A DNA stretch of 64,000 bases. Origin: Deltaproteobacteria bacterium (GTDB lineage Bacteria; Myxococcota_A; Polyangia; Fen-1088). This document shows positions 3,095-61,660 of this stretch, one piece after another (the stretch's first letter is position 1; each line of letters starts with the position of its first letter). The notes beneath the pieces were generated by a model that was given only the letters and a program-made list of their open reading frames with translations, searched no databases and was not told where the DNA came from. The DNA is taken from positions 11,230 through 75,229 of the forward strand of contig JAFGPX010000259.1 in the NCBI GenBank assembly GCA_016935975.1, written 5' to 3'. A program made the position numbers and the translations under genes.

Positions 3095-5463
<2,369 letters not shown>

Positions 5464-52152: not shown

Positions 52153-52322
52153 CTTCTCCTCTCCACTCGCATCGGCAGGGCCGTCGGCAAACTTCAGCCC
52201 TCATGGAGGTTTTTCCCTCTGCGGGCGGGCGCACGCCCAGGCAGCCGCAGTCGCCTGGATGTGCCAGTGCGTCGAAGAGCTGCTTGCCGGCCCGTGTGCC
52301 AGCCATTTGCCAACAGGTGAGC

Positions 52323-54080
52323 ATGGCGAGCAGTCCCGAGCCCCCTGACGTGGCTTTGACGTCGAGCGTTGACAGCGGCTCGCGCGCGATGGAGCGCGTA
52401 CTGCTGGTGGACGACAGCAAGTTGGTGCGCGACTACGTGGGCAGTCTGATTGCCGACTGGGGGTTCCGGGTCGAGACCGTGGGCAGCGGGCGCGCCGCCC
52501 TGGCGGCCTTGGAAGCAAGTCCGGTCGACGTGATCGTGACCGAGGTTCGCATGCCGGAGATGACCGGCCTCGAGCTTCTGACCACCCTGCGGGTGCGCGG
52601 CGTGTCCGCCCCGGTGATCATGCTCTCCTCCGTGTCGCGCACCAGCGAGATCCTGAGCGCCATCCACCAGGGGGCGTTCGACTATGTCGTCCGGGACCAG
52701 GCCATCGAGCCTCTGCGGCTCGCCCTTCTGCGCGCGATGCAGCACGTGCACCTGGTGAGGGAGAACGTCCGGCTCGGCAAGGAGATCGAGGGACTAGGCG
52801 CCGTTCTCGACAGGCGCGTGCGCGAGCGCACGGCGGAGCTCGAACAGGCCAACGCGCGGCTTCTCGCCGAGCGGAGCCAGATGGAGGCCGCCCTGGCCCG
52901 GGTGAGCGAAAGTCAAGAACAGCTGGTGCAGGTGGAGAAGATGGCGAGTATCGGGCTTCTGACCTCCGGTATCGCCCACGAGATCAACAACCCTCTGGCC
53001 TTCATCTTGCCCAACTTCGAGCTCATCGAGGTCTGGCTCGAATCGACGCGCAAGGGCAAGACCACGGGGCGCGTGCCAACCTTGCAGGAGCTGGGCAAGC
53101 TCGTCGCCGAGTGCCGCGCCGGGCTCGACCGTATCTCGCGCCTGGTGCGCCAGTTGCGCGTCTTCTCGCACCCGGGGCGGCACAACCTGGGGCCGGTCGA
53201 CGTCGACGTGGTGGTTCGCTCGGTGGTCGGGTTGGTCGAGCGGGAGATCGCCGGTCGCGCCGAGGTGACGGTGTATTCCGGCATGGACTGCATTGCCCGT
53301 GGCAACGAGGATCACCTCCGGCAGGTGCTGCTCAACCTCCTTCTCAATAGCGCGCAGAGCTTCTCTGCCGAGACGGGAGGCGGCCGTATCGAGGTCGTCG
53401 TGGAGCGCAGGCAGGGCGACGTCGCGATCCGCGTGATAGACAACGGTTGCGGCATCGCCCCGGAAAACTTACGGCGGGTTTTCGATCCCTTCTTCACCAC
53501 CAAGCCGGTGGGGTTCGGTACGGGCCTGGGCCTTTCCATCTCTCGGGATCTCGTCAAGAAGATGGACGGCAACATCACGTTGGAGAGTCAGCTCGGCCGC
53601 GGGACGGTCGTCAACGTGACCTTGCGCAGGTGGCGCGAGCAGGGCGGGAGCCAGGCGGCTCTCGATTCCCTGCGCACGCCCACGCCGGAGATTGTCGGGC
53701 CGAATCTCGGGCGGCGCTTGTCCATCATCATCATCGAGGACGAAACCGCGCTGCTTGCGCCCCTGCGTCGCATGCTGGCCTGCGACCACGACATCATCAC
53801 CTTCAGCGATCCGCGCGACGGCATGCGCTGCCTGGTCGAGCGCGACCCTCCAGACGTGATCATCTGCGACATCAACATGCCGATCGTGGGGGGCATCGAG
53901 CTCTACGAAGAGGTCAAGCGCGTCCGGCCCTTCTTGGCCAGGCGCTTTCTCTTTCTGACGGGCGGTGTCTCCGAGGAAGCGGCGGGGCTTCTGGCCGAGG
54001 GACGGCGGATTATCGAGAAGCCGGTGCACCGCGAGGAGTTGGTCGCCGCGATCGAGGGCATCGCCGCGGCGAAAGAGTAG
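52323..54080 (+). CDS. Hybrid sensor histidine kinase (REC - HisKA - HATPase_c - REC)
   Basis: N-terminal REC (VLLVDDSKLV...VIVTEVRMPEMTG), H-box HEINNPLAF, N/G-box ATPase region (DNGCGI...GTGLGL) and C-terminal REC (IIIIEDE...ICDINMPIVGG). The first ATG after an R/P-rich leader is at 52323. Confidence 0.8.
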   Translation: MASSPEPPDVALTSSVDSGSRAMERVLLVDDSKLVRDYVGSLIADWGFRVETVGSGRAALAALEASPVDVIVTEVRMPEMTGLELLTTLRVRGVSAPVIMLSSVSRTSEILSAIHQGAFDYVVRDQAIEPLRLALLRAMQHVHLVRENVRLGKEIEGLGAVLDRRVRERTAELEQANARLLAERSQMEAALARVSESQEQLVQVEKMASIGLLTSGIAHEINNPLAFILPNFELIEVWLESTRKGKTTGRVPTLQELGKLVAECRAGLDRISRLVRQLRVFSHPGRHNLGPVDVDVVVRSVVGLVEREIAGRAEVTVYSGMDCIARGNEDHLRQVLLNLLLNSAQSFSAETGGGRIEVVVERRQGDVAIRVIDNGCGIAPENLRRVFDPFFTTKPVGFGTGLGLSISRDLVKKMDGNITLESQLGRGTVVNVTLRRWREQGGSQAALDSLRTPTPEIVGPNLGRRLSIIIIEDETALLAPLRRMLACDHDIITFSDPRDGMRCLVERDPPDVIICDINMPIVGGIELYEEVKRVRPFLARRFLFLTGGVSEEAAGLLAEGRRIIEKPVHREELVAAIEGIAAAKE

Positions 54081-54134: not shown

Positions 54135-54170
54135 TTGACCTCATCGGTGTCGCCTCGTATGAACCATACG
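54135..54170 (+). promoter_or_regulatory. Candidate promoter of the merR-like/isc operon: TTGACC - 17 nt - TATGAA, with the perfect palindrome CGTATGAACCATACG over the -10
   Basis: Seen directly: TTGACC at about 54135-54140, palindrome at about 54156-54170, 14 nt upstream of the ATG at 54184. Confidence 0.4.
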
Positions 54171-54183
54171 CAAACGTAAGGGT

Positions 54184-54693
54184 ATGGGTATGGTTTCCGA
54201 TAGAAGAAACAGTAAGTTAGCTCTCCTCAAAGTGGGCGACCTGGCTCGCCGCACGGGCAAGACGGTGCGCGCCATTCATCTCTACGAGGAGATGGGACTT
54301 CTTTCTGCGCCGGTCCGCTCCAAGGGCGGATTTCGCATGTACTCTGGCGATGGGGTCAAGCGCATCGAGTGGATCCAGAAGCTTCAAGACATGGGTTTCT
54401 CGCTTCCCGAGGTCAAGACCTTCCTGCGCGTGTGGCAGGAAAGCGCCACCGCGCCGGCGGCCATGGCCACGGTACGCGAGATCTTCGCCGAGAAGCTGCG
54501 CGAAACCCGCGAGACCATCGCGCGTTTGTCGCGGCTAGCCGACGAACTCGGCGACAGCCTCAAGTACCTCGAGCGCTGCCGCTTCTGTAGCTCCACGCAC
54601 GCGCAGAGCGAATGCTGCGCGTGCGGCAGCCAGGATTCCGACCAGGCGGTGCCCCTGCTGGTCGACGGCATCGCGAATCGAAACACGCCATGA
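54184..54693 (+). CDS. MerR-family transcriptional regulator with Cys-rich C-terminus
   Basis: N-terminal MerR HTH ([26 protein letters not shown]) and C-terminal [18 protein letters not shown] (5 Cys). Its stop overlaps the iscS start (ATGA). Confidence 0.75.
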
Positions 54694-55907
54694 CGCTCAA
54701 GCTGCCCATCTACATGGACTACCAAGCGACCACGCCGGTCGACGAGCGCGTGCTTCTGGCCATGTTGCCGTATTTACGGGAGGATTTCGGCAATGCCGCC
54801 AGCCGATCGCACGGGTTCGGCTGGCGCGCCGAAGAGGCGGTCGAGAAGTCGCGCGAGGAGGTTGCCAAGCTGATCGGGGCTGCCGGCAAGGAGATAGTCT
54901 GGACCTCGGGCGCGACCGAATCCGACAACCTGGCCATCAAGGGCGTGGCGGAGTACTACAAAGACCGCGGCAACCACATCGTCACGGCGGCAACCGAGCA
55001 CAAGGCCGTGCTCGACACCTGCAAGCGGCTCGAGAAGCAGGGCTTTCTGGTGACCTACCTGCCCGTGGATCCCGACGGGCGGGTGAATCCGGCTGCCGTG
55101 GCCTCGGCCATGACCGACAAGACCATTCTGGTGTCGATCATGCTGGCCAACAACGAGATCGGCACGGTCAACCCGGTCGACGAGATCGGCCAGGTCGCGA
55201 AGGCCGGCGGCGCCTTCTTCCACATCGATGCCGTGCAGGGCGTGGGCAAGATACCTTTCGACGTCGGCCGCAGCCGCGCCGACCTGGTGTCGCTCTCGGC
55301 GCACAAGATGTACGGGCCCAAGGGCATCGGGGCGCTCTACGTGCGGCGCAAGCCGCGCGTGCGCCTGACGCCCATCATCGACGGCGGCGGCCACGAGCAC
55401 GGCATGCGCTCGGGCACGCTCAACGTGCCGGGCATCGTGGGCTTCGCCAAGGCCGCGGAGCTTTGCCGGCTGGAAATGGCCGAGGAAGCGGCCCGCGTGC
55501 TGGCCCTGCGCGAACGGCTGCGGCAGGGCATCGAGGCGAGCGTGCCCAACACCAGCGTGAACGGCTCTCTCGCGCACCGGCTGCCAGGCAACCTGAACAT
55601 CAGCTTCGCCTTCGTCGAGGGCGAGGCCATGATGATGGCGCTCAAGGACGTGGCCGTGTCCTCGGGCTCGGCCTGCACGTCCGCCTCGCTGGAGCCGTCC
55701 TACGTGTTGCGGGCCCTGGGCGTGGGCGAGGAGATGGCCCATTCATCCATTCGTTTCGGGCTTGGCAGATTCACCACGCAAGAAGAAGTCGACTACGTGG
55801 TCGACCTGGTGGCGAGCAAGGTGAAGAAACTCCGGGAGATGTCGCCCTTGTGGGAATTGGCGCAATCCGGCGTCGACCTCAAGAGCATCCAATGGTCAAG
55901 GCACTAG
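54690..55907 (+). CDS. iscS: Cysteine desulfurase IscS
   Basis: PLP-lysine region [18 protein letters not shown], active-site SSGSACTS, and a conserved N-terminus [16 protein letters not shown]-like. Confidence 0.9.
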
Positions 55908-55918
55908 AGGAAGCGGCA

Positions 55919-56320
55919 ATGGCATATAGCGACAAGGTGATCGACCATTACGAGAACCCGCGCAACGTGGGCAGCTTGGATCCGTCTGCGCCCAACGTCG
56001 GTACCGCGCTGGTCGGCGCGCCGGCGTGCGGCGACGTCATGAAGCTGCAGATCCAGGTGGGCAAGGACGGGATCATCGAAGACGCGAAGTTCAAGACCTT
56101 CGGGTGCGGCTCGGCCATCGCGTCCTCGTCGCTGGCCACCGAGTGGATCAAGGGCATGACCATCGACCAGGCCATGTCGGTCAAGAACACCCAGATCGTC
56201 GAGGAGCTGAGCCTGCCGCCAGTCAAGATCCATTGCTCGGTGTTGGCCGAGGACGCCATCAAGGGCGCCATTGCCGACTATCGCAAGAAGCAGGATGGGA
56301 AGGCGGAGAGCGCGGCGTAG
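55919..56320 (+). CDS. iscU: Fe-S cluster assembly scaffold IscU
   Basis: MAYSDKVIDHYENPRNVG..., GAPACGDVMKL, FKTFGCGSAIASSS and LPPVKIHCSVLAEDA are hallmark IscU motifs. Confidence 0.9.
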   Translation: MAYSDKVIDHYENPRNVGSLDPSAPNVGTALVGAPACGDVMKLQIQVGKDGIIEDAKFKTFGCGSAIASSSLATEWIKGMTIDQAMSVKNTQIVEELSLPPVKIHCSVLAEDAIKGAIADYRKKQDGKAESAA

Positions 56321-56339: not shown

Positions 56340-56675
56340 ATGGCAATTCAGGTCACCGAAAAAGCGATTGCCGCCATCCAGGCGGCGGCGGCCAAACGCC
56401 AGACTCCGCCCAAGGGATTGCGCGTCGGCATTCGTGGCGGCGGATGCACCGGGTTCTCGTACCTGTTCGAGTGGTCGGACGCCGAGGCGCGGCCCGAGGA
56501 TCGGGTGCTTTCCTTCGAAGACGGTCGGGTCAACGTCTTCGTCGATCCCAAGAGCTTCGCGTTTCTCGACGGCTCGACCCTGGATTTCGCAAGCACCCTG
56601 ATGGCCAGCGGCTTTCGCTGGCTGAACCCCAACGTCAAGTCGACTTGTGGTTGCGGCGAGAGCGTCCAGTTCTAG
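56340..56675 (+). CDS. iscA: Fe-S cluster insertion protein IscA (HesB family)
   Basis: 111 aa; GLRVGIRGGGCTGFSY and C-terminal STCGCGESF motifs. Confidence 0.85.
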   Translation: MAIQVTEKAIAAIQAAAAKRQTPPKGLRVGIRGGGCTGFSYLFEWSDAEARPEDRVLSFEDGRVNVFVDPKSFAFLDGSTLDFASTLMASGFRWLNPNVKSTCGCGESVQF

Positions 56676-56688
56676 TAGACTCGGGCCA

Positions 56689-57340
56689 ATGATCTGCTGG
56701 TCCTGCCAGAAGGCCGCGGGCGAAGGCGTGTTGTGCGCCGCCTGCGGCGCCGTGCAACCGCCCGATTCCAAGGCCGACTACTTCCAGGTCTTCGGTATTC
56801 CCGAGGTCTATGCTCTCGACGAGGCCGGGCTGGAACAGCGCTACAAGGAGCTGACCAAGCTGCTGCACCCCGATCGCTTCGCGCGCGCCGACCCGCGGGC
56901 CCGGCGGGCATCGCTCGAGCGGTCGGTGCAGCTCAACGAGGCCTGGCGTACCTTGAAGGACCCGATCCGGCGGGCGGAGTACATGCTCCTTCTGGCCGGC
57001 ATCGACATCGGCGAAATGGCGGGCACCGGCCGGCAGCCGGCCGACCACGTCACGCTGCCGGTGCCGCCGGTTCTGTTGATGGAGGTGATGGAGCTGCGCG
57101 AGGCCTTGGCCGCGGCCCATGCAGCCAAGGACGTGCACGAGACCGAGGCCCTGATTGCCAAGGTGCAAAGCCGTCTCAAGACGGTCGTGGAGGACGTGGC
57201 CAAGGGTTTTGCCGCCTCGCCGCCCGAGCTGTCCTTCGTCGCGGCTCGCCTCGTGGGCGTGCGCTACTACCGGCGCTTCCTCGACGAGGCGCGCTTGCTG
57301 TGGGAGCAGGAGGGCGCCGGGCCGGGCAAAGACCACAGCC

Positions 57341-57351
<11 letters not shown>
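56689..57351 (+). CDS. hscB: Fe-S assembly co-chaperone HscB with N-terminal tetracysteine motif
   Basis: J-domain ([15 protein letters not shown]...HPDRF) and HscB C-terminal helical domain. The N-terminal CWSC...CAAC resembles the zinc-binding N-terminus of eukaryotic HSC20. Confidence 0.75.
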
Positions 57352-59250
<1,899 letters not shown>

Positions 59251-59254
<4 letters not shown>

Positions 59255-59598
59255 GCGCGCGCATCCGTTTCGAGCCGGACGGCGTCGAGGCCGAGGTCCC
59301 GGTCGGCACGACCATCAAGGAGGCCGCCGAGAGGTGCGGCGCTCATTTGGGCTCGGCCTGTGGTGGGGTTTGCGCGTGTTCCACCTGCCACGTCTACGTC
59401 AAGGAAGGGCTCGACGATCTCTCCGCAATGGAGATGGCGGAAGAGGATCGCCTCGACGGTGCCTTCGACGTGCGGCCCAATTCGCGTCTGGGCTGCCAGG
59501 CGGTACTGCGGCAGGATCGCGGGTACGTGGTCGAGATCACCCGCGAGAGCCTGGAAGCCTTCTTCGACGAGTACCCCGAGCTGCGCGGCGGGCGCTGA
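59251..59598 (+). CDS. fdx: [2Fe-2S] ferredoxin of the isc operon
   Basis: Adrenodoxin-type Cys ligands ([14 protein letters not shown]...LGCQ); ATGA overlap with the hscA stop. Confidence 0.85.
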
Positions 59599-59629: not shown

Positions 59630-59887
59630 TCACGGGCGTCGTAGCTGCGATTCCATCAGGCGCAGGACGTCCGCCACGGTGCGCAGCTCCATGAGCGTGT
59701 CGATGTCCGGATCGAACGCGAACTCTTCGGAGATGCGCGAGACCGCCTCGATGCGTTTGAGACTGTCGAGATTCAGATCCTCGGTGAGCCGGAGGCGAGC
59801 TTCGATGCGCTCGACCGGCAGGCCCGAAAGCTCGGCGAGCACGCTGTAGAGCTCAGCGCGGAAATGCTCGATATCACCGGTCGCCAA
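59630..59887 (-). CDS. Acyl carrier protein
   Basis: 85 aa with a phosphopantetheine-attachment DSL motif (LNLDSLKRIE), downstream of a fatty-acyl-AMP ligase. Confidence 0.8.
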   Translation of the reverse strand: MATGDIEHFRAELYSVLAELSGLPVERIEARLRLTEDLNLDSLKRIEAVSRISEEFAFDPDIDTLMELRTVADVLRLMESQLRRP

Positions 59888-59950
59888 GCGTCGATTCCTC
59901 GATCGAGAAAGGTGCGCCGGCCGGGCAGAAGCCAGGGCGCGCGCTGCGGC

Positions 59951-61660
59951 TCATGGGGTGCTTCTCCCACGGTAGAGCGCCTCCAGATTCTGCGCGAGAT
60001 ACTGCCGCTTCATGAGCTGGCGCTGGAGCTTACCACTCGAAGTCCTGGCCACCCTGCCCTTGGGAACGAGAACGATCTCGTAGGGCTTGGTTTCACAGCA
60101 CGCAAGGACCGCCTCCGTCACCTGCGCGAGAAGCCGGGGTGTCTCGTGGTCCTGCAACTTGGCTTCGACTTCTTGGACGATGACCAGGCATTCCTCGTCG
60201 TCGCGGTCGATGGAGAAAGCCACGGCGCCGCCGGTTCGCAGCCCGGGATGGCTGGCCGAAACACGCCGCTCGATGTCCTCGGGGTAGTAGTTGCGCCCAT
60301 TGACGATGATCATGTCCTTGAGACGGCCCGTCACGAAGAGCTCGCCGTGATCCAGGTATCCGAGATCGCCGGTGCGCAGGTAGGGGCCCTCGCCGTCGGC
60401 CAGGCGCGCACGGAAGGTTTCTTCGCTCGCCTCGCGCTTGCCCCAGTAGCCCTGGGCCACGCAGGGGCCGGCGACCCAGATCTCGCCGATCTCGCGTTCC
60501 GCGCAGACCGCGCGTGTCCGTGGGTCGACCACGCGCACGTCCGCGCCTTCGATCGCCGAGCCGCAACCCACGAGAGTCCGGGCCTGGCTGCCTGCGGCTG
60601 GCCGGGCAACATTGGTCGCCAGCGCCGCGGCGTCGAGCGTCTGGGTAACGAGCGGGGCCAAGTGCTTGCTGGCCGTGACCATGAGGGAAGCCTCGGCAAG
60701 TCCGTAGCAGGGGTGAAGCGCATGGGGCCGGAAACCGACGGGCGCGAACTTGGCGCGGAAGGCGTCCAGGGTGCCGGCCCGGATGGGCTCGGCGCCGCAG
60801 AAGGCCACCTCCCACGAGCTGAGATCGAGGTCGGTCATCTCGGCGGGCTTGATGCGCGAGACGCACAGATCGAACGCGAAGTTGGGGCCGCCGCTGATGG
60901 TGGCGGCAAAACGCGCGATCGCCTGCAGCCATCGGACGGGCCTCAGCGCGAAGGCCAGCGGCGACATCAGATAGACGGGGAACCCGGCGAACAGCGGCTG
61001 CAGAATGCCGCCGATGAGGCCCATGTCGTGATACGGGGGCAGCCAGATGCAGCCGACGGAGCCGGCATGGCTGCGGAAGTTGGTTTGGATGGCCCGGAGG
61101 TTCTCGAGAAGATTGCGCTGGCTGAGCATGACTCCCTTGGGCTCGGCCGTGGACCCCGAGGTGTATTGCAGCAGAGCGAGCGAATCGGCGCGGCGACGGA
61201 CAGGTGCGCTGCGGCTGCCGGCCGCGCCGGCCAGATCCTCGGTGGCGATCCAGTCGAAGGGCCGGGGCCGCGCGGTCGCGTGGAGGTGGGCGGCCAGCTT
61301 CTGCAGGATGGCCGTGGAGGCGAGGGCGGCGCGCGGGCGCGCGTCCTCGATGATGCGAGAAAGGCGGTCGAAGCTCCCGTAGTACTGCGGCGGATAGACG
61401 GGAACCGCGACGGCGCCGGCGTAGAGGCACCCGTAGAAGGCGATGACGTAGTCGAGGCCCGGCAGATGGCAGACGAGAACCCGGTCGTCTTCCCTGACCA
61501 CGGCGCGGAGGCGCTCCGCCACGACCATGGCTCGGTCGTGGAGTTCGCCGTAGGTGCAGCGCTTCTCGTCGAGCTTGCCGCTCAAGAAGGCGTAGGCGAG
61601 AGCCTCCGGCGTCGCCTGCGCGCGCTGCTGCAAGAGCTCGACGAGGCTGTTCCAGACCAA
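59951..61660 (-). CDS. Fatty acyl-AMP ligase (FAAL) / long-chain acyl-ACP synthetase-like adenylating enzyme
   Basis: AMP-binding motifs (LQYTSGSTAEPKGVMLS, YGLAEASL, TGDLGY) plus the FAAL-type insertion region; paired with a downstream ACP. Confidence 0.8.
   Translation of the reverse strand: MVWNSLVELLQQRAQATPEALAYAFLSGKLDEKRCTYGELHDRAMVVAERLRAVVREDDRVLVCHLPGLDYVIAFYGCLYAGAVAVPVYPPQYYGSFDRLSRIIEDARPRAALASTAILQKLAAHLHATARPRPFDWIATEDLAGAAGSRSAPVRRRADSLALLQYTSGSTAEPKGVMLSQRNLLENLRAIQTNFRSHAGSVGCIWLPPYHDMGLIGGILQPLFAGFPVYLMSPLAFALRPVRWLQAIARFAATISGGPNFAFDLCVSRIKPAEMTDLDLSSWEVAFCGAEPIRAGTLDAFRAKFAPVGFRPHALHPCYGLAEASLMVTASKHLAPLVTQTLDAAALATNVARPAAGSQARTLVGCGSAIEGADVRVVDPRTRAVCAEREIGEIWVAGPCVAQGYWGKREASEETFRARLADGEGPYLRTGDLGYLDHGELFVTGRLKDMIIVNGRNYYPEDIERRVSASHPGLRTGGAVAFSIDRDDEECLVIVQEVEAKLQDHETPRLLAQVTEAVLACCETKPYEIVLVPKGRVARTSSGKLQRQLMKRQYLAQNLEALYRGRSTP

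Follow-up and report, generated by a model that had tools for sequence, protein, structure and literature searches.

Which regulator controls iron-sulfur (Fe-S) cluster assembly in a bacterium whose isc operon does not open with iscR? The question is raised by a 64,000-nucleotide stretch of contig JAFGPX010000259.1 (GenBank assembly GCA_016935975.1; Myxococcota_A, Polyangia), referred to here at its full length as the window. In it, the genes iscS-iscU-iscA-hscB-hscA-fdx are preceded by a gene for a cysteine-bearing protein of the MerR family, below called merR. The core idea, that this protein stands in the place of IscR and autoregulates the operon, holds up well in comparative genomics, with genomic context as what we judge to be the strongest evidence. 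In the full model the protein would be a repressor that controls its own operon and serves Fe-S biogenesis specifically, comparable in function to IscR or SufR but built on a MerR scaffold and carrying an Fe-S ligand; for this model as a whole we estimate a probability of about 0.5.

The merR gene and its genomic context

The MerR protein scored above the Pfam cut-offs for MerR_1 (PF13411; 52.5 bits, cut-off 21.6, 5e-14), MerR (PF00376; 40.7 bits, cut-off 28.2, 2e-10) and MerR-DNA-bind (PF09278; 45.1 bits, 2e-11). The winged helix-turn-helix of the family was found both by Pfam and by Foldseek, which matched it to CadR, SoxR and CueR with a probability of 1.00, and the long helix α5 with a C-terminal effector region was found by PF09278 and in an AlphaFold2 (AF2) monomer model. 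No Rrf2 match was detected by Pfam on this protein, and its resemblance to IscR is only functional. The best NCBIfam scores were far under the equivalog cut-offs for CueR (75.8 against 147.4), MerR (65.9 against 150.9), ZntR (60.5 against 168), CadR-PbrR (58.7 against 151.5) and SoxR (TIGR01950, 51.6 bits against 116.9; the cysteine motif here is CX2CX8CX2C), and no curated NCBIfam equivalog family claims the protein. The nearest solved structures are those of Bacillus megaterium MerR, CadR, Tn501 MerR, CueR and SoxR (2zhg), all aligned over residues 13-122 only, so that the alignments end at about residue 122, short of the cysteine loop. Because of these low scores and the confinement of the alignments to residues 13-122, the protein is placed in the MerR family, yet outside the CueR, ZntR, MerR, CadR and SoxR groups.

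The earlier note on this DNA had described a MerR-type protein of 169 residues at the head of the operon. This is correct for the open reading frame as listed, from 54184 to 54693 on the forward strand, with a small revision of the start. The ATG at 54190, which gives 167 residues, is the likely start because the ribosome-binding site AAGGG lies 7 nucleotides upstream and the N-termini of homologues, most of them 162-168 residues long, align there. An NCBI protein predicted from the same contig (P0001, 153 residues, 99% identical) begins instead at a GTG at 54232 (V17). We prefer the upstream ATG, since the L-x-L-L/I-K residues before V17 are conserved and homologues carry non-start codons at the position of the GTG.

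The synteny of merR with Fe-S genes is strict. The gene lies directly upstream of iscS-iscU-iscA-hscB-hscA in 78/78 assessable loci, that is, all those extending far enough among the 80 best GTDB loci (52-80% identity), and it precedes iscS in 10 of 14 more distant members sampled. In the window the TGA stop of merR overlaps the ATG of iscS as ATGA, as the earlier note had stated in proposing translational coupling to iscS. The overlap occurs in only 38 of 79 loci, about half of them; the gap between merR and iscS is 20 nucleotides or less in about 65 of approximately 74 loci with a valid measurement. The regulator gene is co-transcribed with the Fe-S biogenesis genes. The statement that the operon lacks iscR also stands: no Rrf2/IscR gene was found by Pfam in the window, or by tblastn, with an approximate E. 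coli IscR query, in it and in 655 kb of flanks of related loci.

The family to which this protein belongs is large. A database search returned more than 1400 homologues, the top 120 of which are 69-99% identical, 162-169 residues long and derived from metagenome-assembled genomes of Polyangia and other Myxococcota. A profile search of 1.84 billion cluster representatives gave 145 distinct 50%-identity clusters at E ≤ 1e-30, and relatives occur in at least 560 GTDB species genomes. The members placed taxonomically so far belong to the Myxococcota.

All 14 distant members sampled adjoin Fe-S biogenesis genes of three different machineries, with iscS following in ten, sufB in three and a Mrp/NUBPL carrier gene in one. 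Those followed by iscS include P0282 from the cultured Chondromyces crocatus Cm c5 (CP012159; 48% identity), which heads iscSUA-hscBA-fdx, P0247 and P0206 (Myxococcota), P0240, P0261, P0174 and P0375, which precede ISC operons (32-42% identity), and P0152 (about 40%), followed by iscS-iscA. The sufB-linked members are P0183, P0227 and P0246 (31-42% identity), and the start of a complete sufBCDS-sufT-sufA-nfuA operon overlaps the gene for P0246. P0251 (about 34% identity) is followed by the gene for the Mrp/NUBPL-type Fe-S carrier. Two cluster representatives, P0178 and P0203, have MerR N-termini fused to IscS sequence; these fusions are probably frameshifts or miscalls at an overlapping stop and start, and as such provide incidental further evidence of merR-iscS adjacency.

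Source databases label members of the family "copper efflux regulator" or "Zn(II)-responsive regulator of zntA", names that the genomic context suggests are wrong. These labels bear on a second explanation, in which the protein would sense a thiophilic metal (Cu, Zn, Cd or Co) and raise Fe-S biogenesis when metals poison cluster assembly. Its best NCBIfam and PDB matches are indeed CueR, MerR, ZntR and CadR, and Cu(I) targets the Fe-S assembly machinery (PMC11672702). Against this stand the equivalog scores, with even CueR far under its cut-off, and the alignments themselves, which cover the DNA-binding domain and α5 and leave out the metal-binding loop. Moreover, the cysteine at the start of α5 in MerR and ZntR has no counterpart among the four invariant cysteine columns of the family, and neither an efflux gene nearby nor a promoter with the 19-20-bp spacer of MerR-type activation was found. 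A thiophilic-metal sensor is therefore a distinctly improbable account of this protein.

A conserved dyad at the merR promoter

Upstream of merR, a -35-like TTGACC and a -10-like TATGAA are separated by 17 nucleotides, just as the earlier note had read them. TTGAC or TTGTC is found 5' of the dyad described below in 80/80 aligned loci, at a distance of 25-26 nucleotides in 44 of them, with a non-conserved spacer. The relatives carry TATAAC, TATCAC or TATGAC at the -10 position, where TATNAC directly abuts the dyad.

The "perfect palindrome" that had been proposed to cover the -10 did not survive comparison. It is a mere 6-3-6 inverted repeat, CGTATGAACCATACG (54156-70), which is absent from homologous promoters. 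There are 29 perfect 6-3-6 repeats in the window, and 306 repeats with six-bp arms and loops of 0-8 nucleotides, a frequency that gives a random 60-bp stretch about a 25% chance of carrying one. This repeat was rejected as the operator, being common by chance and not conserved in 80 related upstream regions.

A different element is conserved at this place. It is a 10-4-10 inverted repeat of 24 bp with the family consensus AACCCTTACG-N4-CGTAAGGGTT, to which the window copy conforms at 16/20 positions. The best consensus score within 300 nucleotides upstream was 14-20 of 20 in 81/81 promoters (the window plus 80 related loci), compared with mostly 10-11 and at most 14 for background 300-nucleotide stretches from the same loci (340 samples). 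The dyad at 54161-54184 is the sole site scoring 15 or more in the window, and in the 719 kb formed by the window and the flanks of the other merR loci such sites occur at merR promoters only. It also recurs before the SUF-linked members (16-17/20) and the distant ISC-linked members (14-19/20). Thus, the layout for autoregulation described in the earlier note is present in all 81 promoters as a conserved dyad at the regulator's own core promoter, to which binding is predicted; the palindrome named for it was the wrong one.

In the clade of the window, the -10, the predicted site of transcription initiation and the ribosome-binding site all lie at least partly within the dyad. The relatives share this arrangement, with CGTAAGGGTT followed by 5-8 nucleotides and the start codon, and with AAGGG or AAGAG in the right arm as the ribosome-binding site. 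The 22-bp core of the dyad has a 9-4-9 form, ACyCTTACG-N4-CGTAAGrGT, and 22-bp operators of the same architecture are known for firmicute MerR (ACCGTGTAC-4-GTACAGGGT) and ZntR (ACTCTGGAGTCGACTCCAGAGT) (PMC1526738). A MerR-type dyad at a promoter with a 17-bp spacer implies repression or derepression, not activation (PMC1526738). In classical MerR systems the operator sits within an over-long spacer of 19-20 bp (PMC1526738, PMC11672702), whereas the present promoter has a 17-bp spacer and a dyad beginning in the -10, a difference that bears on the mode of action and not on membership of the protein family. A classical layout with a 19-bp spacer (-35 ATAACT, -10 TAGGTT or TTGATT) was considered and rejected: in relatives the start codon follows 5-8 nucleotides past the dyad, so that the -10 of a 19-20-bp-spacer promoter would fall on or beyond it. 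One related locus (L011) has no alternative in-frame start, which also counts against that layout.

In several loci (L042, L045, L048, L054, L058, L068, L085 and L087) the right arm is often followed by a repeat in 6-nucleotide register, CGTAAGGGTTAGGGTT, which produces a second, shifted dyad match 6 nucleotides downstream in merR promoters. This match may be an extra half-site or merely the context of the ribosome-binding site.

A metagenome scan with CCTTACG-N4-CGTAAGGG returned 120 stretches, 17 of which were flagged as lying beside a MerR gene. A few further stretches have the site or the gene truncated where the contig stops, and most of the other matches look like chance occurrences with unrelated GC content and flanks. 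One metagenome contig (L187, GC 0.68) carries at 3496-3545 the operator-like sequence AAC-CCTTACG-CGAC-CGTAAGGG-ATAGGTTT, about 26 nucleotides upstream of an open reading frame that starts MRDVAIIG (Rossmann-like) and is cut by the contig end; merR is not adjacent. From its sequence, this locus is a possible additional member of the regulon.

Since binding of the dyad by the MerR protein is predicted only, the dyad might instead be bound by another factor, such as an IscR encoded elsewhere, or act as an RNA hairpin, with the MerR protein regulating other genes. The Chondromyces dyad, which lies wholly after the -10 and could be transcribed, is compatible with the RNA version. In the distant locus L087, by contrast, the dyad is located upstream of the -35 and so is not RNA there; the leader of the window had no Rfam match and folded no better than shuffled sequence (z = -0.79). 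As for another protein, the dyad travels with merR across ISC, SUF and distant contexts, its geometry is the MerR-type 9-4-9, and in our judgement it appears unlike the consensus of type 1 or type 2 IscR sites. We consider this explanation highly improbable in either version.

The cysteine loop and the proposed mechanism

The only cysteines of the MerR protein are five residues in the segment between α5 and the C-terminal helix. The earlier note had presented all five as a Cys-rich C-terminus. Four of them form the conserved motif CxxC-x8-CxxC, while the fifth, C145, alternates between Cys and Gly in the alignment. The four cysteines (Cys4) are invariant in 78/78 relatives with 30-84% identity, which were chosen by rank only and not by the motif. 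Among 111 full-length cluster representatives, defined as those whose alignment reaches the C-terminus, 108 match C-x2-3-C...C-x2-C and the other three have variant four-cysteine spacings. No conserved cysteine was found outside this loop. The loop is followed by a second conserved element, PLLVDGI, invariant in the first alignment and retained across 50%-identity clusters as P-x-L-V/I-x-G.

The AF2 model built from the 78-sequence alignment had an overall predicted local distance difference test score (pLDDT) of 84.9 and showed a MerR fold with a winged helix, a long α5 helix at residues 88-128 (pLDDT >90) and a short C-terminal helix at residues 156-165 in 167-residue numbering (pLDDT about 81). 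The core was confident, and the cysteine loop was low in both AF2 runs (about 57-63), as would be expected for a loop modelled without its ligand. The cysteines occupy the segment that separates the dimerisation helix from the final helix, where CueR and ZntR have their metal-binding loop and SoxR its [2Fe-2S] site. As modelled, the layout is that of a MerR-type metal sensor in which the Cys4 segment replaces the metal-binding loop.

These observations can be assembled into a mechanism. The MerR protein would act as a dimeric factor encoded by the first gene of a merR-iscSUA-hscBA-fdx operon under its own control, a non-orthologous replacement for IscR or SufR. Its winged-helix domains would bind the 24-bp dyad and, because the bound protein would cover the -10, the start and the ribosome-binding site of a 17-bp-spacer promoter, should block RNA polymerase; no DNA twisting for activation would be involved, unlike in classical MerR proteins. 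The four cysteines would ligate an Fe-S cluster supplied by the operon's own machinery, with the cluster-loaded protein binding and repressing. When cluster supply falls or oxidants destroy the cluster, the apo-protein would leave the DNA and the operon would be derepressed, in a homeostatic loop resembling that of holo-IscR.

That the Cys4 loop holds an Fe-S cluster is probable from its setting, and other ligands for the same four residues have to be weighed. With the same regulator and operator, the loop could hold Zn(II), either structurally or as a thiol redox switch in which oxidation of the thiols frees Zn and alters DNA binding, the operon then answering oxidative stress and not cluster occupancy. 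Zn knuckles typically show the CxxC-x(8-9)-CxxC spacing, the HscB protein of the same operon has a CxxC-x9-CxxC aligned to the Cys4 N-terminal domain of human HscB, and, given the low confidence of the loop in both predictions, the model does not tell one ligand from another. A purely structural Zn site would, however, leave the regulator without an evident signal input, and the location of the motif in a MerR-type effector loop, together with the strict linkage to three Fe-S machineries, points to their product as the signal. On balance a Zn(II) site appears unlikely. A single iron bound in rubredoxin style, by which free iron and not clusters would be sensed, is a further candidate: two CxxC pairs are the rubredoxin ligand set and iron availability would be a sensible input. 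Nothing specific favours it, most known iron sensors (Fur, DtxR) use N/O ligands, and MliR, the sole MerR-like iron-responsive regulator described, has neither an effector domain nor cysteines (PMC9478572). We regard mononuclear iron as very unlikely.

Several considerations weigh against an Fe-S-dependent repressor of the isc operon. The function assigned to the MerR protein derives from comparison, and the motif CxxC-x8-CxxC is also typical of structural Zn sites, from which sequence alone does not separate an Fe-S site. In the classical members of the MerR family, DNA is bound both in the presence and in the absence of the effector, so that ligand-dependent release would be atypical. The window copy of the operator has a degenerate left arm, with 7/9 core positions symmetric. 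We infer the promoter and its transcription start from TTGAC, which is conserved at a constant distance across related loci; a strict sigma-70 consensus scan did not call the window promoter, where TATGAA lacks the final T. No clear additional targets emerged from the metagenome scan, and an IscR may be encoded elsewhere in the genome.

Taken together, the comparison of the MerR protein to IscR made in the earlier note is supported by the synteny, the operator and the conservation of Cys4, and was overstated with regard to the palindrome, the fifth cysteine and the coupling. A broader proposal, to which we give slightly less than even odds, is that the family forms a third independently evolved class of master regulators sensing Fe-S clusters, with a MerR scaffold, a new CxxC-x8-CxxC cluster site, paralogues on ISC, SUF and Mrp, and cluster-dependent repression from an operator at -10/+1. 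The combination of a MerR-family sensor with the regulation of Fe-S biogenesis, and the promoter geometry, are apparently undescribed in the literature searched: full-text searches of the literature accessible to the study yielded no paper that places isc or suf under a MerR-type regulator, and a 2024 review of bacterial metal sensing has no such member among the unconventional MerR proteins.

Operon neighbourhood and comparison with known systems

The coordinates of the features in the window are collected in Table 1.

Table 1. Predicted genes, protein segments and promoter elements at the merR-isc locus (positions in the window)
Feature	Coordinates	Strand	Remarks
-35-like hexamer TTGACC	54135..54140	+	read directly
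-10-like hexamer TATGAA	54158..54163	+	17-nt spacer from -35; final 3 nt coincide with the first 3 of the predicted operator
6-3-6 repeat CGTATG-AAC-CATACG of the earlier note	54156..54170	.	right arm falls within the left arm of the predicted operator
Predicted operator, 10-4-10 inverted repeat GAACCATACG caaa CGTAAGGGTA	54161..54184	.	about -9 to +15 of the promoter
Shine-Dalgarno AAGGG	54178..54182	+	within right arm of operator; 7 nt upstream of ATG 54190
MerR-family regulator gene (merR)	54190..54693	+	167 aa from ATG 54190; 169 aa if ATG 54184
MerR_1 DNA-binding region	54229..54429	+	Pfam MerR_1, residues 16-82; R22-E36 invariant in alignment; aligns with DNA-binding domains of MerR, CadR and CueR (PDB)
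Cys4 sensor loop (putative)	54577..54624	+	C132, C135, C144, C147 invariant; C145 variable; between α5 and C-terminal helix
C-terminal motif PLLVDGI	54652..54672	+	family pattern P-x-L-V/I-x-G; predicted short helix α6
iscS, cysteine desulfurase	54690..55907	+	NCBIfam IscS 8e-195, above cut-off
iscU	55919-56320	+	Pfam/NCBIfam
iscA	56340-56675	+	Pfam/NCBIfam
hscB	56689-57351	+	Pfam/NCBIfam
hscA	57341-59254	+	Pfam/NCBIfam
fdx, ISC-type ferredoxin	59251-59598	+	Pfam/NCBIfam

Directly upstream of merR, a hybrid histidine kinase that carries receiver domains at its two ends is encoded at 52320-54080; it is syntenic in the closest relatives (L001, L004-L008) and not in more distant ones. The opposite strand after fdx (59630-61660) encodes, by eye, an acyl-carrier-protein-like open reading frame of 85 residues and a fatty-acyl-AMP-ligase-like one of 569 residues. 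In the window fdx is not followed by iscX, whereas an iscX-type gene (PF04384) comes after hscA in the distant relative L087. A distant locus linked to ISC has a Fur-family gene downstream of fdx and in the same orientation (L209:10139-10534). The window HscB has an N-terminal CxxC-x9-CxxC, and human mitochondrial HscB (3bvo, Cys4 N-terminal domain) aligned with it from residue 3, whereas the E. coli and Vibrio proteins align only from residue 29-30. Judged by these alignments, this myxobacterial ISC operon encodes a tetracysteine HscB of the eukaryotic type.

Over the DNA-binding domain and α5, the best sequence and structure matches of the MerR protein are firmicute MerR, ZntR, CadR/PbrR and CueR, and the firmicute MerR and ZntR operators are likewise 22-bp 9-4-9 dyads with ACyC...GrGT ends (PMC1526738). 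The dyads of these heavy-metal sensors lie inside 19-20-bp spacers and serve activation by DNA distortion, in contrast to the dyad over -10/+1 of a 17-bp-spacer promoter here. Their metal-binding loop is not homologous to the Cys4 loop, and their targets are efflux and detoxification genes instead of Fe-S assembly. MliR is a MerR-superfamily protein tied to iron homeostasis, with a Mrp/Nbp35 gene among the genes affected (PMC9478572). It was rejected as a relative of the Cys4 family, since it belongs to an MlrA-like subgroup and has no effector-binding domain and no cysteines (PMC9478572).

In terms of the predicted structure, SoxR, a [2Fe-2S] protein of the MerR family, is the nearest known system. 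It is among the closest structures and has the same scaffold, with four cysteines in a single C-terminal loop after α5. Its motif is CX2CXCX5C. The protein described here differs in having CX2CX8CX2C and a tail of about 20 residues bearing PxLVxG, and SoxR is an activator that works at a long-spacer promoter, with soxS and not Fe-S biogenesis under its control.

Like the MerR protein, the proteobacterial [2Fe-2S] regulator IscR of the Rrf2 family is encoded by the first isc gene, is autoregulated at its core promoter and has a cysteine-based sensor site. Holo-IscR represses the isc promoter (PMC11672702), the logic proposed here for the MerR protein. The two folds are unrelated, an Rrf2 winged helix against a MerR winged helix with an antiparallel coiled coil; IscR uses three Cys and one His as ligands compared with the four Cys here, and its operator sequence differs. 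In cyanobacteria and actinobacteria, suf genes adjoin the gene for SufR, a repressor that carries an Fe-S cluster. The present family similarly includes members that head sufBCDS operons, with no sequence relationship between the DeoR/ArsR-type SufR and the MerR proteins.

What is understood of the control of Fe-S biogenesis comes mainly from work on proteobacterial IscR and on the SufR of cyanobacteria and actinobacteria, and we know of no such regulator for most other phyla. If our reading is true, the Cys4 MerR family would fill this gap for the Myxococcota, correcting a widespread misannotation as copper efflux regulators or ZntR. It would also provide a second Fe-S-type sensor on the MerR scaffold besides SoxR, and a natural example of a DNA-twisting MerR activator turned into a promoter-occluding repressor. 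The proposal lends itself to direct testing, since the predicted operator is a defined 24-bp element, the candidate ligands are four known cysteines, and one carrier of the gene, Chondromyces crocatus Cm c5, is in culture.

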